A stretch of 64,000 bases of DNA from a virus (taxonomy: Duplodnaviria > Caudoviricetes), in IMG/VR virus record IMGVR_UViG_3300037847_002819, positions 31,890-95,889 of that record; one strand, given 5' to 3'. Below the pieces are notes generated by a model. The model saw only the letters and a program-made list of their open reading frames with translations, was not told the DNA's origin and ran no database searches. The translations under genes were made by a program, and so were the position numbers. How positions within the stretch are numbered: the stretch's first letter is position 1; each line of letters opens with the position of its first letter. Below, one piece after another: positions 4,576-38,041 of the stretch.

Positions 4576-4808
4576 GTATATCTCGGATTAGGCGAGGGTT
4601 GTAAAACATATAATAATGCCGGTTTAATGGCGAAATAATTAACCTTCAAATGTTAATATTGGTTAATTAACCGTTAAATACAGGCATTTTAATGTTAATA
4701 TAAAAAATAAAAAATTTGGACAAAGCCATATGGTTGTATAAATAATAATATCAGCCAATTAATGTTAAAAGCATATGGTAGCAACTTTGGTAATGAGGAA
4801 CGAATGGC

Positions 4809-4845
4809 TACCTTATATGAAGTCCGAGGTCGAATAGTAGTGGCT
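4809..4845 (+). promoter_or_regulatory. archaeal TATA promoter and shared leader of paralog 1
   Basis: ACCTTATATG box followed by TCGAATAGTAGTGGCT, which recurs identically at 5595-5610. Confidence 0.65.
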
Positions 4846-4891
4846 TCGGGGATTGAAGCATTAATCTAACACATTTAGGAGTTGATTAAAA

Positions 4892-5380
4892 ATGGAAATA
4901 GAAAAATGGAATGATAAAGTTGCCATGATTATTGCATGGTTAAAGGAAAATGACGCAGGTGCTATGGGACAGGTTATTCAAGTTAATATTGAAGCCGGTA
5001 ATGAAGCACAAACAGATGAAGATAGGAATAGATTTTGGGAGGCAGTTAGAGCCTTGTGTAAAACACTTCCAAATAGCCCTATTAAGAAAGGTCGTGGTTC
5101 AACACTACCTAATGAAGTCCAAGCGGTTTTAGATTCAATATCTGATGAAGTCGCTCAAGCCGCTAGTGATTTTTTTGCTATTGGTGACATGAATATGCTT
5201 CTTTTGAAGCATGGAAAGAGTGGCGGTGGTTTATTCACTGCTGACGAGTATTCTGCATATATGTCACAAACAGTAGTTAATTCTCTCAAGAGGAGATACA
5301 AAGACAAAATTTGGGATGGTAGTCGTCAAGGACTATTAACCCAAGCATTCCCCGTTGAGGAGGTTGACGAGGAAGAATGA
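4892..5380 (+). CDS. hypothetical protein, paralog family P (copy 1)
   Basis: AGGAG RBS; shares DEDRNRFWEAVRALCKTLPNSPIKKGRGSTL with copy 2; acidic tail. Confidence 0.9.
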   Translation: MEIEKWNDKVAMIIAWLKENDAGAMGQVIQVNIEAGNEAQTDEDRNRFWEAVRALCKTLPNSPIKKGRGSTLPNEVQAVLDSISDEVAQAASDFFAIGDMNMLLLKHGKSGGGLFTADEYSAYMSQTVVNSLKRRYKDKIWDGSRQGLLTQAFPVEEVDEEE

Positions 5381-5415
5381 TTGATGCTTTAATCCCCAAG
5401 CCCCAGATTCACCAA

Positions 5416-5503
5416 ATAACCCGCATAGGACTGATAATTCCGATTCTTATATTTATTATCTGTATGATTAATCAGCCTATGCGGGTTATGCCTTATTTTT
5501 TTA
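5416..5503 (+). terminator. stem-loop plus T-tract
   Basis: ATAACCCGCATAGG...CCTATGCGGGTTAT 14-bp inverted repeat followed by a T run. Confidence 0.7.
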
Positions 5504-5659
5504 TTTTAGGGTAGTAAAACCAAAGTGTATTCATTACATGAATATTTATTACCATATGGTTGTATCTTTGAGCAACCCTACATATAGTAGCACATCGAAT
5601 AGTAGTGGCTCAAAGGGATTGAGTCGGTATTGATGGAGTCAATACAGGAGATGAAAAGA

Positions 5660-6190
5660 ATGGAACAAGAAAAGTGGATAACAAAGTCTAACGAAATTAG
5701 AGCATGGCTTGAGCATAATGATGCAGGGGCTATGGGAGCAGTAATAACAGTAAATCTAGATGCTGGCGATTCAGCCGCATCCGATGAAGACAGAAATCGT
5801 TTTTGGGAAGCAGTTCGGGCATTATGCAAGACCCTCCCAAACTCGCCAATAAAGAAAGGTCGTGGCTCAACGCTAGACCCAGCAATTCAAGCCGTTGTGG
5901 ATTCTGTGAGCAATCGCATTCAAAATGCTTTTGTCACAATTTCTGACGCTGAATTGCTACTTGAAGTAATGCTACCACATGGTAAAACAGGTGGCGCATA
6001 CGCTAACATTGAAGCATTGGCTTCTGATATGGCAACAAAGGCTGTAAGAGTCCTAAAGGCGGCATTGAAAGATGGTCGCTGGGATGGAACAATGAGCGAT
6101 AGTGGACTAACAGGCATGACTCCGCCTATGAAGTCTGATTCCTCTAACGAGGAAGCAACGGAAGAATCCCAAGAGGAGGAAACCGTCTGA
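5660..6190 (+). CDS. hypothetical protein, paralog family P (copy 2)
   Basis: Start reassigned to MEQEKW by alignment with MEIEKW of copy 1; AGGAGATGA RBS; promoter CCCTACATATAG at about 5576. Confidence 0.9.
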   Translation: MEQEKWITKSNEIRAWLEHNDAGAMGAVITVNLDAGDSAASDEDRNRFWEAVRALCKTLPNSPIKKGRGSTLDPAIQAVVDSVSNRIQNAFVTISDAELLLEVMLPHGKTGGAYANIEALASDMATKAVRVLKAALKDGRWDGTMSDSGLTGMTPPMKSDSSNEEATEESQEEETV

Positions 6191-6280
6191 TACCGATTCA
6201 ATCCCTTTAAGCCCCATACGATTCCTACGGGCATCCGGTAACACCTGTTAAAATTACAATTGAATCTGAACATAGGTCAA

Positions 6281-6359
6281 TGCGGAAGAGTAGGAAAGGG
6301 GAAACAGTGAGAAAACCAAAGGACACTCACTGTTTCCCCTTCCGCCCACTATTTTTTTT
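6281..6359 (+). terminator. stem-loop plus T-tract
   Basis: GGGGAAACAGTGAG...CTCACTGTTTCCCC inverted repeat then T8. Confidence 0.75.
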
Positions 6360-6578
6360 AATAGGGTTGTGTCAAATACTGCGTATTACCAAAGTATGAC
6401 ACAACCATATGGTAGCGACTTTGTGCTACCTTATCTGTTAAAAAAATAAAGATGGATTTTTATACAGAATCCTAACTGTTGCCGCCATCTCAGGCTCAGG
6501 CTTAGGCGACTATACCACCGTATAGTCTCGTTACATTTTGTCCGGTGGGGAACGCATAAAACCACATTCTTTGGACTA

Positions 6579-6737
6579 TCATACATATCTTCTTTTAGAA
6601 GTCAAGGGTTTATCCGGATTTAAAGCACACCCAATGGCAACTTTATCTTTATTCCGTTCATTCATTTTAGCGACATAACCTGCCCACCAAACTTCTCCAG
6701 CCCTAATTTCTGCTCTCATTTTACTTCTTCTATTCAT
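6579..6737 (-). CDS. 52-aa hypothetical protein (MNRRSKMRAEIRAGEVWWAGY...)
   Basis: Manually found; GGAGATGA RBS; downstream hairpin GACTATAC/GTATAGTC and T-tract. Confidence 0.5.
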   Translation of the reverse strand: MNRRSKMRAEIRAGEVWWAGYVAKMNERNKDKVAIGCALNPDKPLTSKRRYV

Positions 6738-6883
6738 TTAATCATCTCCATAATTATCCGGTTCATTATCCTTAACATAAGTATCATACAACATAACCCA
6801 TTCACAGTCGTTACAACAAATGAAAACACTACCTGCATAACTCTCTTCTAATTCAGTATTTGCACTACCGCAAGCATCACAAG

Positions 6884-7120
6884 TCATTCTTCCTCATCCC
6901 CCATATATTCTAGGTATTCTTCAAACTGCACATATGATACGGTTGCAATCGTTAATGCGTTAATGTTCATTGTATGTGAAGTATTAGGATTCTGATAACC
7001 TTCATTACGCCTCTTCCATACATGAAACATTATTTCTTTATCCTCGAAATAACTAACCACTCGCTTTTCAATCGTATTGTCCGGATGGACTATTGTTCCC
7101 CACTTTACTTTGGTTTCCAT
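6884..7120 (-). CDS. hypothetical protein, probably leaderless
   Basis: ATG 7120 lies about 20 nt downstream of CCTTACATATAG (minus strand 7152-7141); ends GDEEE. Confidence 0.65.
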   Translation of the reverse strand: METKVKWGTIVHPDNTIEKRVVSYFEDKEIMFHVWKRRNEGYQNPNTSHTMNINALTIATVSYVQFEEYLEYMGDEEE

Positions 7121-7212
7121 GTTGTTACAAATTAAACGACTATATGTAAGGTTTGACAAAGTTCAAACCATATGGTTGAGTAATGGTTCTTTTGAATTAA
7201 TGGATAACCATA

Positions 7213-7590
7213 AAAAAAATTTAGGCGAATCCAGCGAGAGAGATAGCCACCGGCTTAGTTTTCGACTCTCTCGCTGAATTCTAAAGGGTGTCAGCCTAGA
7301 AGATACCGTTTCCGGTTCTAGGAAGGTGAGTGGATTATCTTGCACCACTAAGTTTGTAACTCAATTTACTGCTTGTTCAATTGAGGGTCACACAACCTTC
7401 TAATGTATTCATCAATTGGTGATTGATGCCCTTTTGGGGAACATACGCTTCAAGAACCACTACCATACTATCCAATAGGACTTCCGATAATGGGTGAAAC
7501 CCGCACCACACGGTTAAGAAGTGCATTACGCCGCTACTAGCGTTGTTCTGCCACTGACTATCCAGCAAAGGTAGCGAACCCTTGCTGAAC
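7213..7590 (-). ncRNA. candidate large structured non-coding RNA
   Basis: Own TATA-like box and T8 tract; many nested helices; GAAA tetraloop; G-U wobbles fit the minus strand; no credible ORF. Confidence 0.6.
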
Positions 7591-7712
7591 AATACTATAT
7601 TCATCAATACTTTATCTAGGGTTTATTCAAAAGACTCAACCATATGGTAAGATGTGCGAATCTTTTGATGCTTCGCAGATATTACCATAAAAAAAATAGG
7701 TGATGGCCGATT

Positions 7713-8102
7713 TTACTCGGCCACCACCATTAATCCATGACTAGGTAGTGTTTTCAACAATCCCCAAATTGCCTCCAAATATCTAGGGTGTAATTGTTCC
7801 TTCCACAAACTAACAGTAAATTGGACTACATCATACAGATTGCTTTCATACACAATCCGATAATCAATCACATTATCAATTCCTTCGTTTATAACTCTGA
7901 TTTTGAATTTGGTCATAGAATCCTCATTTGTTTGTTCCTCTTCGTATCTGCTTGGAATACCTTGTTCTGCACGATTACATTCACCACAGGTAGCGATGAT
8001 TTCATAATCTGCATATTCATCTTCACAATCACCTAGTCCATAGTGACCTATTGATATTGATTCTCCACAGTTGTTCTTGCATGATATATTTGTCCATGTC
8101 AT
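7713..8102 (-). CDS. hypothetical protein with Cys motifs (CKNNC, CGEC), putative Zn-binding
   Basis: ORF alone in a cassette with CCTTATGATAAAG promoter and T-tract. Confidence 0.7.
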   Translation of the reverse strand: MTWTNISCKNNCGESISIGHYGLGDCEDEYADYEIIATCGECNRAEQGIPSRYEEEQTNEDSMTKFKIRVINEGIDNVIDYRIVYESNLYDVVQFTVSLWKEQLHPRYLEAIWGLLKTLPSHGLMVVAE

Positions 8103-8225
8103 ATTAATATCAATTCAATTACTTTATCATAAGGTAAGTTTCAAAGACTTACCATATGGTTGTAACTTTGAGGATTAGCGTAGCCAACCCTATATGAAAT
8201 AGGGTAATTCATAGTATTGGTTCTT

Positions 8226-9143: not shown

Positions 9144-9177
9144 TGACTCCCTTTATATGGTGTTAGCATATGGAGAG
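9144..9177 (+). promoter_or_regulatory. promoter class TGACTCCCTTTATA (copy 1)
   Basis: 29/34 nt identical to 15883-15916; contains a TTTATA TATA box. Confidence 0.75.
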
Positions 9178-9212
9178 TCTGCCCCCAAAATGGCGGGGTA
9201 GGATATGATAAT

Positions 9213-9689
9213 ATGGATGATGTAAAGTGGGACAGTATCGTTATTGAAACGAATGAATACCTAGAAACAGATGCGATTGATGGTGCGTTGAAACAAGTGG
9301 TTCAACTACACCTTGAAGTCGGTCAAAATAACCCGAATGAAAGAGATGCTGCGGCAAATGCGCTAAAGGCACTATTGAAAGGCCGTGATGGTTCACCATT
9401 TGGCCGCAAAGGTGCAAAGAGCGCAGTTCCAACAAGTGTTAGAGTAGTAATTGACCGCATTTGCGGTGTCGTTGAAGAAGCGGCAGTTAACTACTACAAC
9501 CATGATGGAATTATGGCGGCTCTTTGTCTTCGTCATGCTAAATCCGGTGGAGGACAATATGAGTCTGCTGAAGATTATGCAAAGGCACAGGCAAAGAAAG
9601 CACGAACCCAACTAAGTAAGATGTTCAAAGAACAAACTTGGGATGGGAGCGTTGAGTCGCTTTTGTCAAGTGAATCTTCTGAAGAATGA
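9213..9689 (+). CDS. hypothetical protein, paralog family P (copy 3, divergent)
   Basis: Shares KW, GA.KQV.Q, A..ALL, SP..KG, H.KSGGG.Y and WDGS motifs with copies 1 and 2. Confidence 0.85.
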   Translation: MDDVKWDSIVIETNEYLETDAIDGALKQVVQLHLEVGQNNPNERDAAANALKALLKGRDGSPFGRKGAKSAVPTSVRVVIDRICGVVEEAAVNYYNHDGIMAALCLRHAKSGGGQYESAEDYAKAQAKKARTQLSKMFKEQTWDGSVESLLSSESSEE

Positions 9690-9736
9690 ATTTAATTTAA
9701 TTCTGAAAGATTTGGTTTAACCCTAATGGGTCTTTT

Positions 9737-9776
9737 GCCCCTCACAGGAGTTCGCTCTTGTGGGGGGCTTTTTTTA
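9737..9776 (+). terminator. GC-rich hairpin with TTCG loop plus T7
   Basis: GCCCCTCACAGGAG TTCG CTCTTGTGGGGGGC TTTTTTT. Confidence 0.8.
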
Positions 9777-9821
9777 TTGTATGATAAGAGGCAATAGATT
9801 CAGATTAATTTATTAAAAAAC

Positions 9822-36385: not shown

Positions 36386-38041
36386 ATGATAATTAGTAGG
36401 TGTTTAGATGGAAAACACATATACAAATCTTGGAGAGAGAATAACGAGAAAAAATTCGAATTGGAAAGATTTAGACCCTACTTTTATGTGAAGGAAAACG
36501 AAAAGGAACATACAACATATTCTCCTTCTAAGTATATCAAACGAGAGTTTGAATATGAAAGAGGAGAATGGGTGAATCTAGATGGTGATAGATTAAAGAG
36601 AGTATATGTTGAAAACTCTTTTGATGTTTTTTCTGCTAGAAAAATGTTTAAGCAAACATATGAAGCAGATGTTCCATATACATTTAGATATGCAGTTGAT
36701 TGTATTTCGGAAATGCCGGAGTATAAAATGCGTAAATGGTATTGGGATATGGAATGGCAACAAGGAGGAGAACATCATAATAAAATTACTACTATTGTAA
36801 TGTATGATAATTATGATAAGGACTATCATCATTGGGTTTGGTTTCCTAATAAATACAAACATGAAATTGAAAAAGCAAAGCCAAAATATGTTTTTGGTTC
36901 TGAAAAAGAAATGCTTGAACATTTCATTAACACAATGATAGATAAAGACCCCGATATGTTAATTGCGTGGTTCGGTAACTTCGCTGATATACCTAAATTA
37001 CTTGAAAGGTGTTGTGCTTTAGGAATTAACCCTAATAGAATGTCTCCGATTAACCGGATAGATGGTGTTAAACAGACTAAGAACGGCTTCAAATATACTA
37101 AAGGTGAAAAGGGGTTCTCGCCAATAGAACAACCCATAGGGGGTCGCATAACCCTCTCATTAGACATGGCTTTTGAAAGACAATGGAATGACTCGCAAAG
37201 AGGAACATTACCTTCTCTATCTTTGGACTATGTATCTGAATCTTTACTTAACAAGAAGAAGTTAGTTTCAGAAAAGTTTCCCGACCCAAACGAATTCTAT
37301 CGTAGGGCTTGGTTAGAAGATACTGAAACTTATTTGCAGTATGCTCTAAAAGATGTTGAATTGATTGTTGAAATAGATGAAACTAATTATTGTAGCGAAG
37401 CGATTATTGCACTACAAAGATTACTGAAAGCACCATTTGATGCTTGTTTTTATGCAAGCCATATGGGTTCTATTTACTTCATGCGTAATGCTTGGTGGAA
37501 AGCACCAACAGGTAATAAGAAAGCAGAAAAGAAGTCTTATCAAGGGGCTATGATTTATGACCCGTTGAGTGAAAACACTAACGGATTACATCTTAATGTG
37601 GCGGCTTTTGATTATGCAGGTCTATACCCTGCTATGATGATTTCAAGAAACATTTCGTTTGAAACTAAAAGCGAAGAACCTACCGAGTTTGGTGTGAACA
37701 TATTGACTCCTAGAGATTTTAGCGAGGTAACAGAAACAAAGATGCTATACTACAAAACCGATAAACTAGGATTGTTGCCTAAGTCTGTATTAGAACTCAA
37801 AGAGTTGCGAAATGAATATAAGCGACTTATGCGTGAGGCGAGAGAGAACAATAATAACAGTGACTATATCAAGTGGTATAACAATCAAATGGCGGTAAAG
37901 AGACTAATGGCTTCATTTTACGGAATCATTGGCTATACCGGTTTTAGTTGGGCTGATGCTGATTTAGCGGCTAGTATTACTGCTAGTGCTAGAGAAGCAA
38001 TTAGATTGGCGGCTTTTAAGGCAAAGGAGATGAATGTATGA
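36386..38041 (+). CDS. polB: family B DNA polymerase, N-terminal part (exonuclease, motifs A and B)
   Basis: PYFY, YEADVPY..RY, WDME (ExoI), SLDYVS, Y...DV (ExoIII), FDYAGLYP, Q.AVK.LM.SFYG. Confidence 0.93.
   Translation: MIISRCLDGKHIYKSWRENNEKKFELERFRPYFYVKENEKEHTTYSPSKYIKREFEYERGEWVNLDGDRLKRVYVENSFDVFSARKMFKQTYEADVPYTFRYAVDCISEMPEYKMRKWYWDMEWQQGGEHHNKITTIVMYDNYDKDYHHWVWFPNKYKHEIEKAKPKYVFGSEKEMLEHFINTMIDKDPDMLIAWFGNFADIPKLLERCCALGINPNRMSPINRIDGVKQTKNGFKYTKGEKGFSPIEQPIGGRITLSLDMAFERQWNDSQRGTLPSLSLDYVSESLLNKKKLVSEKFPDPNEFYRRAWLEDTETYLQYALKDVELIVEIDETNYCSEAIIALQRLLKAPFDACFYASHMGSIYFMRNAWWKAPTGNKKAEKKSYQGAMIYDPLSENTNGLHLNVAAFDYAGLYPAMMISRNISFETKSEEPTEFGVNILTPRDFSEVTETKMLYYKTDKLGLLPKSVLELKELRNEYKRLMREARENNNNSDYIKWYNNQMAVKRLMASFYGIIGYTGFSWADADLAASITASAREAIRLAAFKAKEMNV

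Follow-up and report, generated by a model that had tools for sequence, protein, structure and literature searches.

We analyzed a 64,000-nucleotide stretch of viral DNA (the window), which comprises bases 31890-95889 of the 95.9-kb IMG/VR virus record IMGVR_UViG_3300037847_002819 (rated complete; G+C content ~34%). Between 4.7 and 6.4 kb, the window carries two tandem sister genes on the plus strand, referred to here as copy 1 and copy 2, and the element under study is a long helix that pairs the 5' and 3' ends of the RNA of each gene. Copy 1 (4892-5380) encodes a protein of 162 amino acids, predicted to be all-helical with an acidic C-terminus. Copy 2 (5660-6190) encodes 176 amino acids when read from the ATG that aligns with copy 1, and its product is 57% identical to that of copy 1.

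Each sister gene lies inside a long 5'/3' helix

An original prediction, made from the letters of this DNA, held that the two paralogs are each enclosed by a long 5'/3' stem that takes in the stop codon. We found the corresponding inverted repeats, and both helices are present in the minimum free energy (MFE) folds. In copy 1, the inverted repeat and the fold place the 5' arm at 4842-4866, where GGCTT and a bulged C precede a 19-nt core, and the 3' arm at 5379-5402, which begins inside the stop codon TGA (5378-5380). The core of this repeat (4848-4866/5379-5397) is 89% complementary over its 19 nt. In copy 2, the 5' arm lies at 5607-5632; the 3' arm at 6188-6213 contains the whole stop codon TGA (6188-6190), and the repeat itself (5607-5630/6190-6213) is 92% complementary over 24 nt. 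All four arms are read on the plus strand.

Each core arm has two positions that depart from Watson-Crick pairing. Checked base by base, these are all G-U pairs on the plus strand in both copies, as had been predicted for the sense strand. Both helices run outward through GGCT/AGCC, copy 1 with the bulged C and copy 2 with one C-A mismatch. Folding of the full-length RNAs returned both long-range helices in the MFE and the centroid structures, with z-scores of -5.0 for copy 1 and -4.3 for copy 2 against 20 shuffles each. The ribosome-binding site (RBS), GGAG at 4878-4881 in copy 1 and at 5647-5650 in copy 2, is unpaired together with the start codon in the centroid of both copies, indicating that the RBS is not sequestered; this part of the prediction is borne out as well.

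We compared the energy of the duplex between the 5' and 3' flanks for 83 crude gene calls in the window. The two sister genes ranked first and second (-46.2 and -34.4 kcal/mol; median of all calls, -17.1). The value of -34.4 kcal/mol was depressed by a wrong start in the crude call, and the right start gives -55.2 kcal/mol. These data confirm that the inverted repeats and the helices are present and exceed what chance would give. A further candidate for an enclosed gene, 1849-2106 on the minus strand (energy -33.5 kcal/mol, z -5.6), was rejected, as its duplex consists of scattered short pairings in packed coding sequence with a single run of ~10-12 bp.

The helix is conserved and covaries in relatives

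Marine samples supplied the relatives of the two genes. The family comprised 33 protein clusters in a large protein collection; 8 viral and 80 metagenome loci were retrieved. A profile hidden Markov model of the family gave 155 matches in these loci, including 121 complete genes with enough flank, of which 88 were distinct and 87 free of N. For each gene, we folded 77 nt upstream (-85 to -9 before the ATG) against 70 nt around the stop (20 before to 50 after the stop end) and scored the duplex as a z-score against shuffles of the 3' window. An enclosing duplex with z < -2 was found in 76 of the 87 genes and one with z < -3 in 66, the median energy being -43.4 kcal/mol.

The arm sequences diverge strongly between clades, and each gene prefers its own partner. 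When one gene was taken per coding-sequence cluster, the cognate 3' arm was the best of 28 in 16 of the 28 clusters and among the top three in 23, with a mean arm energy of -40.3 kcal/mol for cognate and -27.4 kcal/mol for non-cognate combinations.

Covariation was counted in the copy 2 clade, in which 18 sequences were aligned over their full length and 28 pairs were taken from the window's own helix. The copy 1 clade was left out of the pair counts because MAFFT set the arms of its subclades in different registers. In the copy 2 clade, 91.2% of cells were paired, and 9 of the 28 pairs had changed on both sides. Doubly changed cells numbered 40, compared with 12.0 ± 2.7 in shuffles (none of 500 reached 40), and sliding the partners by 1-3 columns gave at most 13. 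In one such change within this clade, GGGAUUGA/UCAAUCCC is replaced by GGGUUUGA/UCAAACCC; other compensatory examples are AAAGGG/CCCUUU to AAGGGG/CCCCUU and CGGUAU/AUACCG to UAGUGU/AUGCUA. The arms are thus kept in place and covary in relatives.

The anatomy of the helix is also recurrent. Measured over 78 genes, the main helix has a median length of 27 bp; with 24 clusters as the unit, the median is 23 bp. The 5' arm stops ~20 nt short of the ATG, and the 3' arm sets in ~2 nt before the stop codon ends. In 22 of the 24 clusters, no more than 5 nt separate the stop codon from the 3' arm, and in 14 the arm overlaps it. The outer half of the helix (GCUUCGGGG.../...CCCCGNNGC) is conserved and rich in G+C, and the inner half is A+U-rich and variable. 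Together, these results show that the helix is conserved and under selection across a wide family of marine virus genes.

We also considered whether a CCA following the helix could be a family feature that invites a tRNA-like reading. This was dismissed, as only ~8 of 23 representatives counted by eye have CCA or CCCA immediately after the last pair; ~10 of the others have (U)CCC(C)UU, three have CAC(A/U), and two have neither.

Selection acts on the sense-strand RNA

Three tests of strand agree in direction. In the copy 2 alignment, G-U accounted for 55 cells in 10 columns compared with 10 cells in 4 columns for A-C. When helices were traced in a strand-symmetric manner with one gene per cluster, we counted 8 G-U and 1 A-C (p = 0.039). 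In 18 of 22 clusters, the sense duplex exceeded the antisense duplex in stability (Wilcoxon p = 0.005). A cruder count by ungapped extension (65 G-U versus 45 A-C, p = 0.07) was set aside because the extension overruns the helix. Each of these tests is modest alone; combined with the transcript evidence below, they make a DNA-level reading unlikely and show selection for the helix as RNA, on the sense strand.

RNA contigs of copy 1 begin and end at the base of the helix

Parts of 4700-6400 are present in six RNA-library runs from three studies, and four of these runs were compared with the window. Copy 1 is represented by RNA contigs of 558 and 567 nt (runs X1 and X3, from one sample), both of which begin at 4842, the first G of the GGCUUC at the helix base, and include both arms. 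Nine loose letters in the X1 contig amount to a one-base insertion only. The 3' ends of the copy 1 contigs fall at ~5398 (X1), 5404 (X3), 5398 (X5), and 5405 (X6), and thus recur in three studies. Both ends of the copy 1 assemblies therefore lie within a few bases of the outermost helix pair. The word graph of an assembler should give no cause for a break at the arms, as they share no 31-mer.

None of the four runs has an RNA contig over 4600-4791 or 5432-5623, which argues against carry-over of DNA. Other gaps in cover (parts of copy 2 and intergenic stretches) are not read as absence of RNA. The strong hairpin downstream of the copy 1 helix (5416-5507) is likewise covered by no RNA contig in the four runs.

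The prediction of a panhandle mRNA on the sense strand is supported by three lines of evidence, namely the covariation, the excess of G-U over A-C, and RNA contigs that hold both arms from the first helix base. For copy 1, transcripts that start downstream of the 5' arm were not what we found; the X1 and X3 contigs begin at the first base of the helix.

A TATA-like box stands at a constant distance from the helix base

A promoter-like or cassette-boundary motif, CATATGGT..CTTTG, precedes both genes on the plus strand, at 4772-4789 before copy 1 and, in a motif scan, at 5553-5570 before copy 2. The pattern CATATGGT-N(3-12)-CTTTG has seven matches in the window compared with 0.06 expected, all within 3.4 kb (4772-8170) and on both strands. 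Two back-to-back divergent pairs are found among them, 6390-6411 (minus) with 6406-6423 (plus) and 8142-8158 (minus) with 8153-8170 (plus).

Before both genes, the motif is followed by a TATA-like box on the plus strand. Before copy 1 this is CTTATATG (4812-4819), whose first T lies 29 nt before G4842; before copy 2 it lies in CCCTACATATAG (5576-5587), where T5579 stands 28 nt before G5607. A 16-mer shared by the two copies, TCGAATAGTAGTGGCT, comes next (4830-4845 and 5595-5610, plus strand), and its last four bases, GGCT, open the helix. It has exactly two exact matches in the 64 kb, at 4830 and 5595, and four matches with up to three mismatches compared with 0.37 expected. The original prediction had pointed to this 16-mer near the predicted transcription start. 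Its exact repetition in the two copies holds, but it is not shared family-wide, only its 3' part (an AT-rich stretch followed by G(G)CT) being conserved.

In relatives, an element of the form CCATATGG...CTTTG is conserved before genes of the family, and a box composed of CC(C) and a TA-rich stretch comes next. The first T or A of this box precedes the helix base by 27-30 nt in each of the 23 helix-bearing representatives counted by eye, and the information content of the upstream region peaks at -31/-30 and at -25. Archaeal TATA boxes are centered near -26. From its sequence, the TA-rich box is plausibly an archaeal promoter, and its spacing, which matches that of archaeal TATA boxes, agrees with a transcript start at the helix base.

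Hairpins downstream of the helices

Both genes are followed on the plus strand by a strong hairpin and a T run. After the copy 1 helix, a long hairpin with a T-rich run occupies 5416-5507 (14-bp perfect stem, 5416-5429/5476-5489; z -5.1). Its loop of 46 nt and the 6-8 nt between stem and T run are unlike a compact bacterial intrinsic terminator. The same layout with a different sequence recurs in three relatives (loci L005-L007). After copy 2, a 16-bp perfect hairpin with a T run is found at 6296-6360 (stem, 6296-6311/6326-6341; z -4.6). A search of Rfam over 4600-6500 returned only sub-threshold microRNA look-alikes, which fall on this 6296-6341 hairpin. On the minus strand, the same hairpin lies just downstream of the motif copy at 6390-6411 and a CCCTATTAAAAAAAA box. 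It could represent a small RNA of the minus strand, or terminate in both directions, and not act as the terminator of copy 2 alone.

The virus resembles magroviruses

Pfam matches in the virus include a family B DNA polymerase (PolB), an ATP-dependent DNA ligase, a Cpn60/TCP-1 chaperonin, a class II ribonucleotide reductase, and a UvrD helicase. The best matches of PolB in a collection of 50,697 phage records were tailed viruses of Halorubrum, at 26% identity. Magroviruses are tailed viruses of Marine Group II archaea (Poseidoniales) (PMC5434244). As described there (Philosof et al. 2017), they carry a PolB nearest to that of haloarchaeal tailed viruses, one or more ATP-dependent ligases, and a chaperonin in the replication block; group B also has a ribonucleotide reductase. 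The Pfam content and the PolB matches of our virus fit this description, as does the marine origin of the homologs of the gene family; by gene content it looks magrovirus-like, and its host is probably an archaeon. Gene content, rather than a capsid or polymerase tree, is the basis of this resemblance, and we assign the virus to no group.

The PolB open reading frame (ORF; 36386-38041) is only 551 amino acids long and matches the exonuclease domain plus positions 36-193 of the 453-position profile of the polymerase domain. The polymerase of this virus may be split into parts; split polymerases are mentioned for magrovirus group B1 (PMC5434244).

A third paralog uses separate end hairpins

A third member of the protein family is encoded at 9213-9689 on the plus strand, with 36% identity to copy 1. 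The duplex between its flanks (energy -15.0 kcal/mol, z +1.6) gives no enclosing helix. Within 9150-9790, the gene has instead a local hairpin just before its RBS (z -2.3) and a strong terminator in which a G+C-rich hairpin of 14 bp precedes U7 (z -5.1). One genome thus holds two distinct designs of mRNA ends, helix and separate end hairpins, for the same protein family. A fourth and weak family match lies outside the window on the minus strand (locus L004, G000:C1:11247-11489; E 1.2e-4, 26% identity over residues 62-144), within an ORF of 165 amino acids elsewhere in the genome.

The family protein resembles nothing informative in the collections that we searched. Pfam returned no family for the copy 1 and copy 2 proteins, and PHROGs gave a single match at E 0.17. 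The AlphaFold2 model is all-helical with a pLDDT of 86; Foldseek against the PDB gave no match to it at E up to 0.001, and a wide VIA-align search turned up nothing beyond generic three-helix bundles (residues 2-66, Z up to 8.4), a result that VIA-align itself grades as uninformative when models are helical. The ESM Atlas yielded no usable match, and a DNA search of the phage collection with 4600-6500 found none. The motifs NDAGAM, LPNSPIKKGRGS, HGK(S/T)GG, and WDG are conserved, as is an acidic C-terminal tail. We saw no sign of toxin character in these proteins of ~160 amino acids.

Discussion

The explanation that we prefer, and hold to be somewhat probable from the anatomy of the RNA, is that the helix acts as an end-to-end clamp that shields both ends of the mRNA. 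Each gene would be transcribed as its own short mRNA, whose first nucleotides (from G4842 and G5607) would pair with those at and just after its own stop codon, and a helix of ~25 bp would close the message of ~560-600 nt into a loop. If pairing at the 5' end takes in the very first nucleotide, and the 3' end is trimmed or cut as far as the helix, exonucleases would find no single-stranded entry from either direction. The RBS and the start codon, ~20 nt inside the helix, would remain free for translation. Because the helix exceeds the stretch melted by a ribosome on the stop codon, the ends could stay clamped during translation. A cut, or termination, at the C-rich tail just past the helix may be needed to form the 3' end, and the copy 2 contig that overshoots the helix, described below, may be a precursor.

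Several observations fit such a clamp. The copy 1 RNA stops at the helix, short of the strong hairpin and T run that come next in the DNA, and its 5' end appears paired from the first base. There is precedent in the 14-bp 5'/3'-UTR (untranslated region) pairing of hbs and in the tac/fbi stem of hok. The third paralog, which is without the helix and has a separate 5' hairpin and terminator hairpin, fits a helix that does the work of end structures. Among the functions proposed in the original prediction, blocking of exonucleases is therefore the one that fits best.

Other points weigh against the clamp. Its function is deduced from anatomy, and the host is uncultivated. Assembled contigs are a weak measure of RNA ends and strand, and the 5' end at 4842 comes from one sample. 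RNA cover of copy 2 is thin; one contig (6116-6264, depth 2.1) reaches ~50 nt beyond the 3' arm, and at least some copy 2 RNA is longer than the helix-bounded form. Simple trimming explains the 3' end poorly, because the downstream hairpins and T runs would themselves block 3' exonucleases. A specific helix is missing in 5 of the 28 clusters (the third paralog at 9213-9689, L015, L086, L093(-), and L030, the last of which has a helix, but one common to its close relatives). The helix is therefore dispensable for the protein family.

The same geometry could serve translation rather than stability. By bringing the stop codon beside the RBS, the helix might let terminating ribosomes or small subunits re-initiate on the same message. 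In this explanation, which is compatible with the clamp and which we consider unlikely, the arrangement would be a counterpart, made of RNA only, to the closed loop of eukaryotes. In its favor, 22 of 24 clusters have the stop codon close to the 3' arm's inner end, the 5' arm ends shortly before the ATG, and GGAG is unpaired. Termination-reinitiation has been described for overlapping gene pairs in archaea and bacteria (PMC6728339), and haloarchaeal 5' and 3' UTRs act jointly in translational control (PMC2636863). Yet to reach the stop codon, a ribosome has to open the inner portion of the same helix that would keep stop and start close, and the 3' arm varies in position from -14 to +12 relative to the stop, which is loose for a precise hand-over. 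Alternatively, the helix could be a processing signal, the substrate of a double-strand-specific or helix-guided endonuclease that excises the message as RNase III does at rRNA stems, or else a host beta-CASP nuclease could cut the single-stranded C-rich or CA stretch 3' of the helix. Archaeal aCPSF1 prefers CA dinucleotides. Several findings would suit processing: the RNA contigs stop at 5398-5405 with a terminator-like hairpin and T run still ahead in the DNA, the copy 2 contig past the helix is a possible precursor, and the main helix, at about two helical turns or more, has the length of an RNase III stem. The helix base is conserved (GCUNC...GNNGC, then a C-rich stretch), with the remaining helix variable, and the contig ends 4842 and 5404 would leave a 2-nt 3' overhang, though contigs cannot define ends and are a weak measure of the true ones. 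RNase III, however, is rare in archaea, and none is encoded in the 95.9-kb record; the constant 27-30 nt from the TATA-like box suggests a primary start and not a cut. We regard processing, in the two forms taken together, as somewhat less likely still than re-initiation.

A regulatory site, at which the helix with its conserved base would be bound by the encoded protein in autoregulation or by another viral or host factor, strikes us as improbable. The helix base is conserved across clades with only ~35-50% protein identity, each paralog keeps its own arm sequence, and the encoded protein has neither a known family nor an informative fold match, so RNA binding is possible. Its model gives no hint of RNA binding, however, and has an acidic tail, and the conserved 5' bases may belong to the promoter or initiator, with the 3' bases merely their complement. 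That the arms are DNA elements, such as inverton or cassette recombination sites or the terminal repeats of a mobile unit in which RNA pairing is incidental, is very improbable. The genes do sit in a cassette array bounded by a palindromic motif, but the non-Watson-Crick positions favor G-U on the sense strand, the arms are transcribed, and they diverge yet stay complementary, unlike recombinase sites. Least probable of all, and close to negligible, is a circular mRNA, for which the helix would guide excision and ligation as at archaeal pre-rRNA stems. It is true that a long helix encloses the RNA as a whole and that the virus is probably archaeal, but no 3-4-3 bulge-helix-bulge occurs in any of the 78 helices (MFE duplexes), their loops being irregular and not conserved. 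No back-splice joint was found in the four RNA runs, where the search covered assembled contigs, from which rare forms are dropped, and the virus encodes neither RtcB nor a splicing endonuclease. Circularization, which the original prediction had also offered, is thus not supported.

Among these explanations, the end-to-end clamp remains the one that we prefer. In a bolder version, which we put forward as a doubtful conjecture, magroviruses would use an RNA-only closed-loop mRNA: transcription would start at the first base of a ~25-bp helix, a host nuclease acting on the C-rich or CA tail would form the 3' end at the last helix base, the resulting blunt panhandle would be exonuclease-proof, and terminating ribosomes would be handed back to a start codon 20 nt away. 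If true, the arrangement would be to an archaeal virus what the cap/poly(A) closed loop is to eukaryotes, and it would offer a testable handle on the cooperation of archaeal 5' and 3' UTRs.

Stabilization of archaeal mRNA and cooperation between its 5' and 3' UTRs are poorly understood, and end-to-end pairing offers an explicit physical mechanism. The dozens of natural variants constitute a ready-made series of compensatory mutations, and the element is compact (two arms of ~25 nt) and transplantable to reporters in model archaea. The helix would also mark an early, highly expressed gene family in abundant ocean viruses and would suggest that the cassette genes of such viruses carry their own post-transcriptional control. 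The weight of these points is limited by a function deduced indirectly and by an uncultivated host.

Comparison with known systems

Our literature searches found no published end-paired mRNA in archaeal viruses. The main texts of the magrovirus papers that we consulted mention neither promoters nor inverted repeats, nor, where these were looked for, UTRs, stems, or hairpins. In haloarchaea, the UTRs of both ends, 5' and 3', are needed for translational control, and the portions of that study on which we draw describe no pairing mechanism (PMC2636863).

Helices that flank a whole functional RNA are known around rRNA. RNase III processes these stems in bacteria, and in archaea they undergo bulge-helix-bulge cleavage and circularization. 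The virus helix resembles them in its length, in flanking the whole RNA, and in the apparent RNA ends at its base. It differs in that it encloses a translated mRNA, lacks the bulge-helix-bulge and the joint, and has a 5' end that is probably a primary start.

Parallels are also found among bacterial mRNAs. In Bacillus subtilis hbs, a 14-bp pairing of the 5' with the 3' UTR limits the access of RNases (Braun, Durand and Condon 2017, PMC5737220). From what that report describes, hbs and the virus genes have in common a long-range 5'/3' pairing within one short monocistronic mRNA whose RBS stays usable, with limited access for ribonucleases as its effect in hbs and its proposed effect here. The hbs pairing lies inside the UTRs and modulates an RNase Y site, whereas the virus helix measures 23-27 bp and runs from, or from next to, the first transcribed base to the stop codon. 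The hbs 3' UTR, according to a review, is not conserved among related species (PMC7821165); the virus helix is kept family-wide, with paralog-specific arms, in a virus that is probably archaeal.

The tac/fbi stem of hok stabilizes the full-length mRNA of plasmid R1 (PMC9841398). There, too, an mRNA pairs its extreme 5' end with its own 3' end to give a compact and stable full-length form, and 3' processing is part of the cycle. As outlined in that source, the closed form of hok is silent, with the mok Shine-Dalgarno sequence sequestered, and the system includes the antisense RNA Sok; in the virus, GGAG and the start codon are unpaired. The 5'/3'-UTR pairing of Staphylococcus aureus icaR, as summarized in PMC7821165, masks the RBS, invites RNase III, and represses, in contrast to the virus helix, which leaves the RBS free in a virus that encodes no RNase III. 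Compared with hbs, hok, and icaR, the virus helix is end-to-end, about twice as long, and reaches the stop codon.

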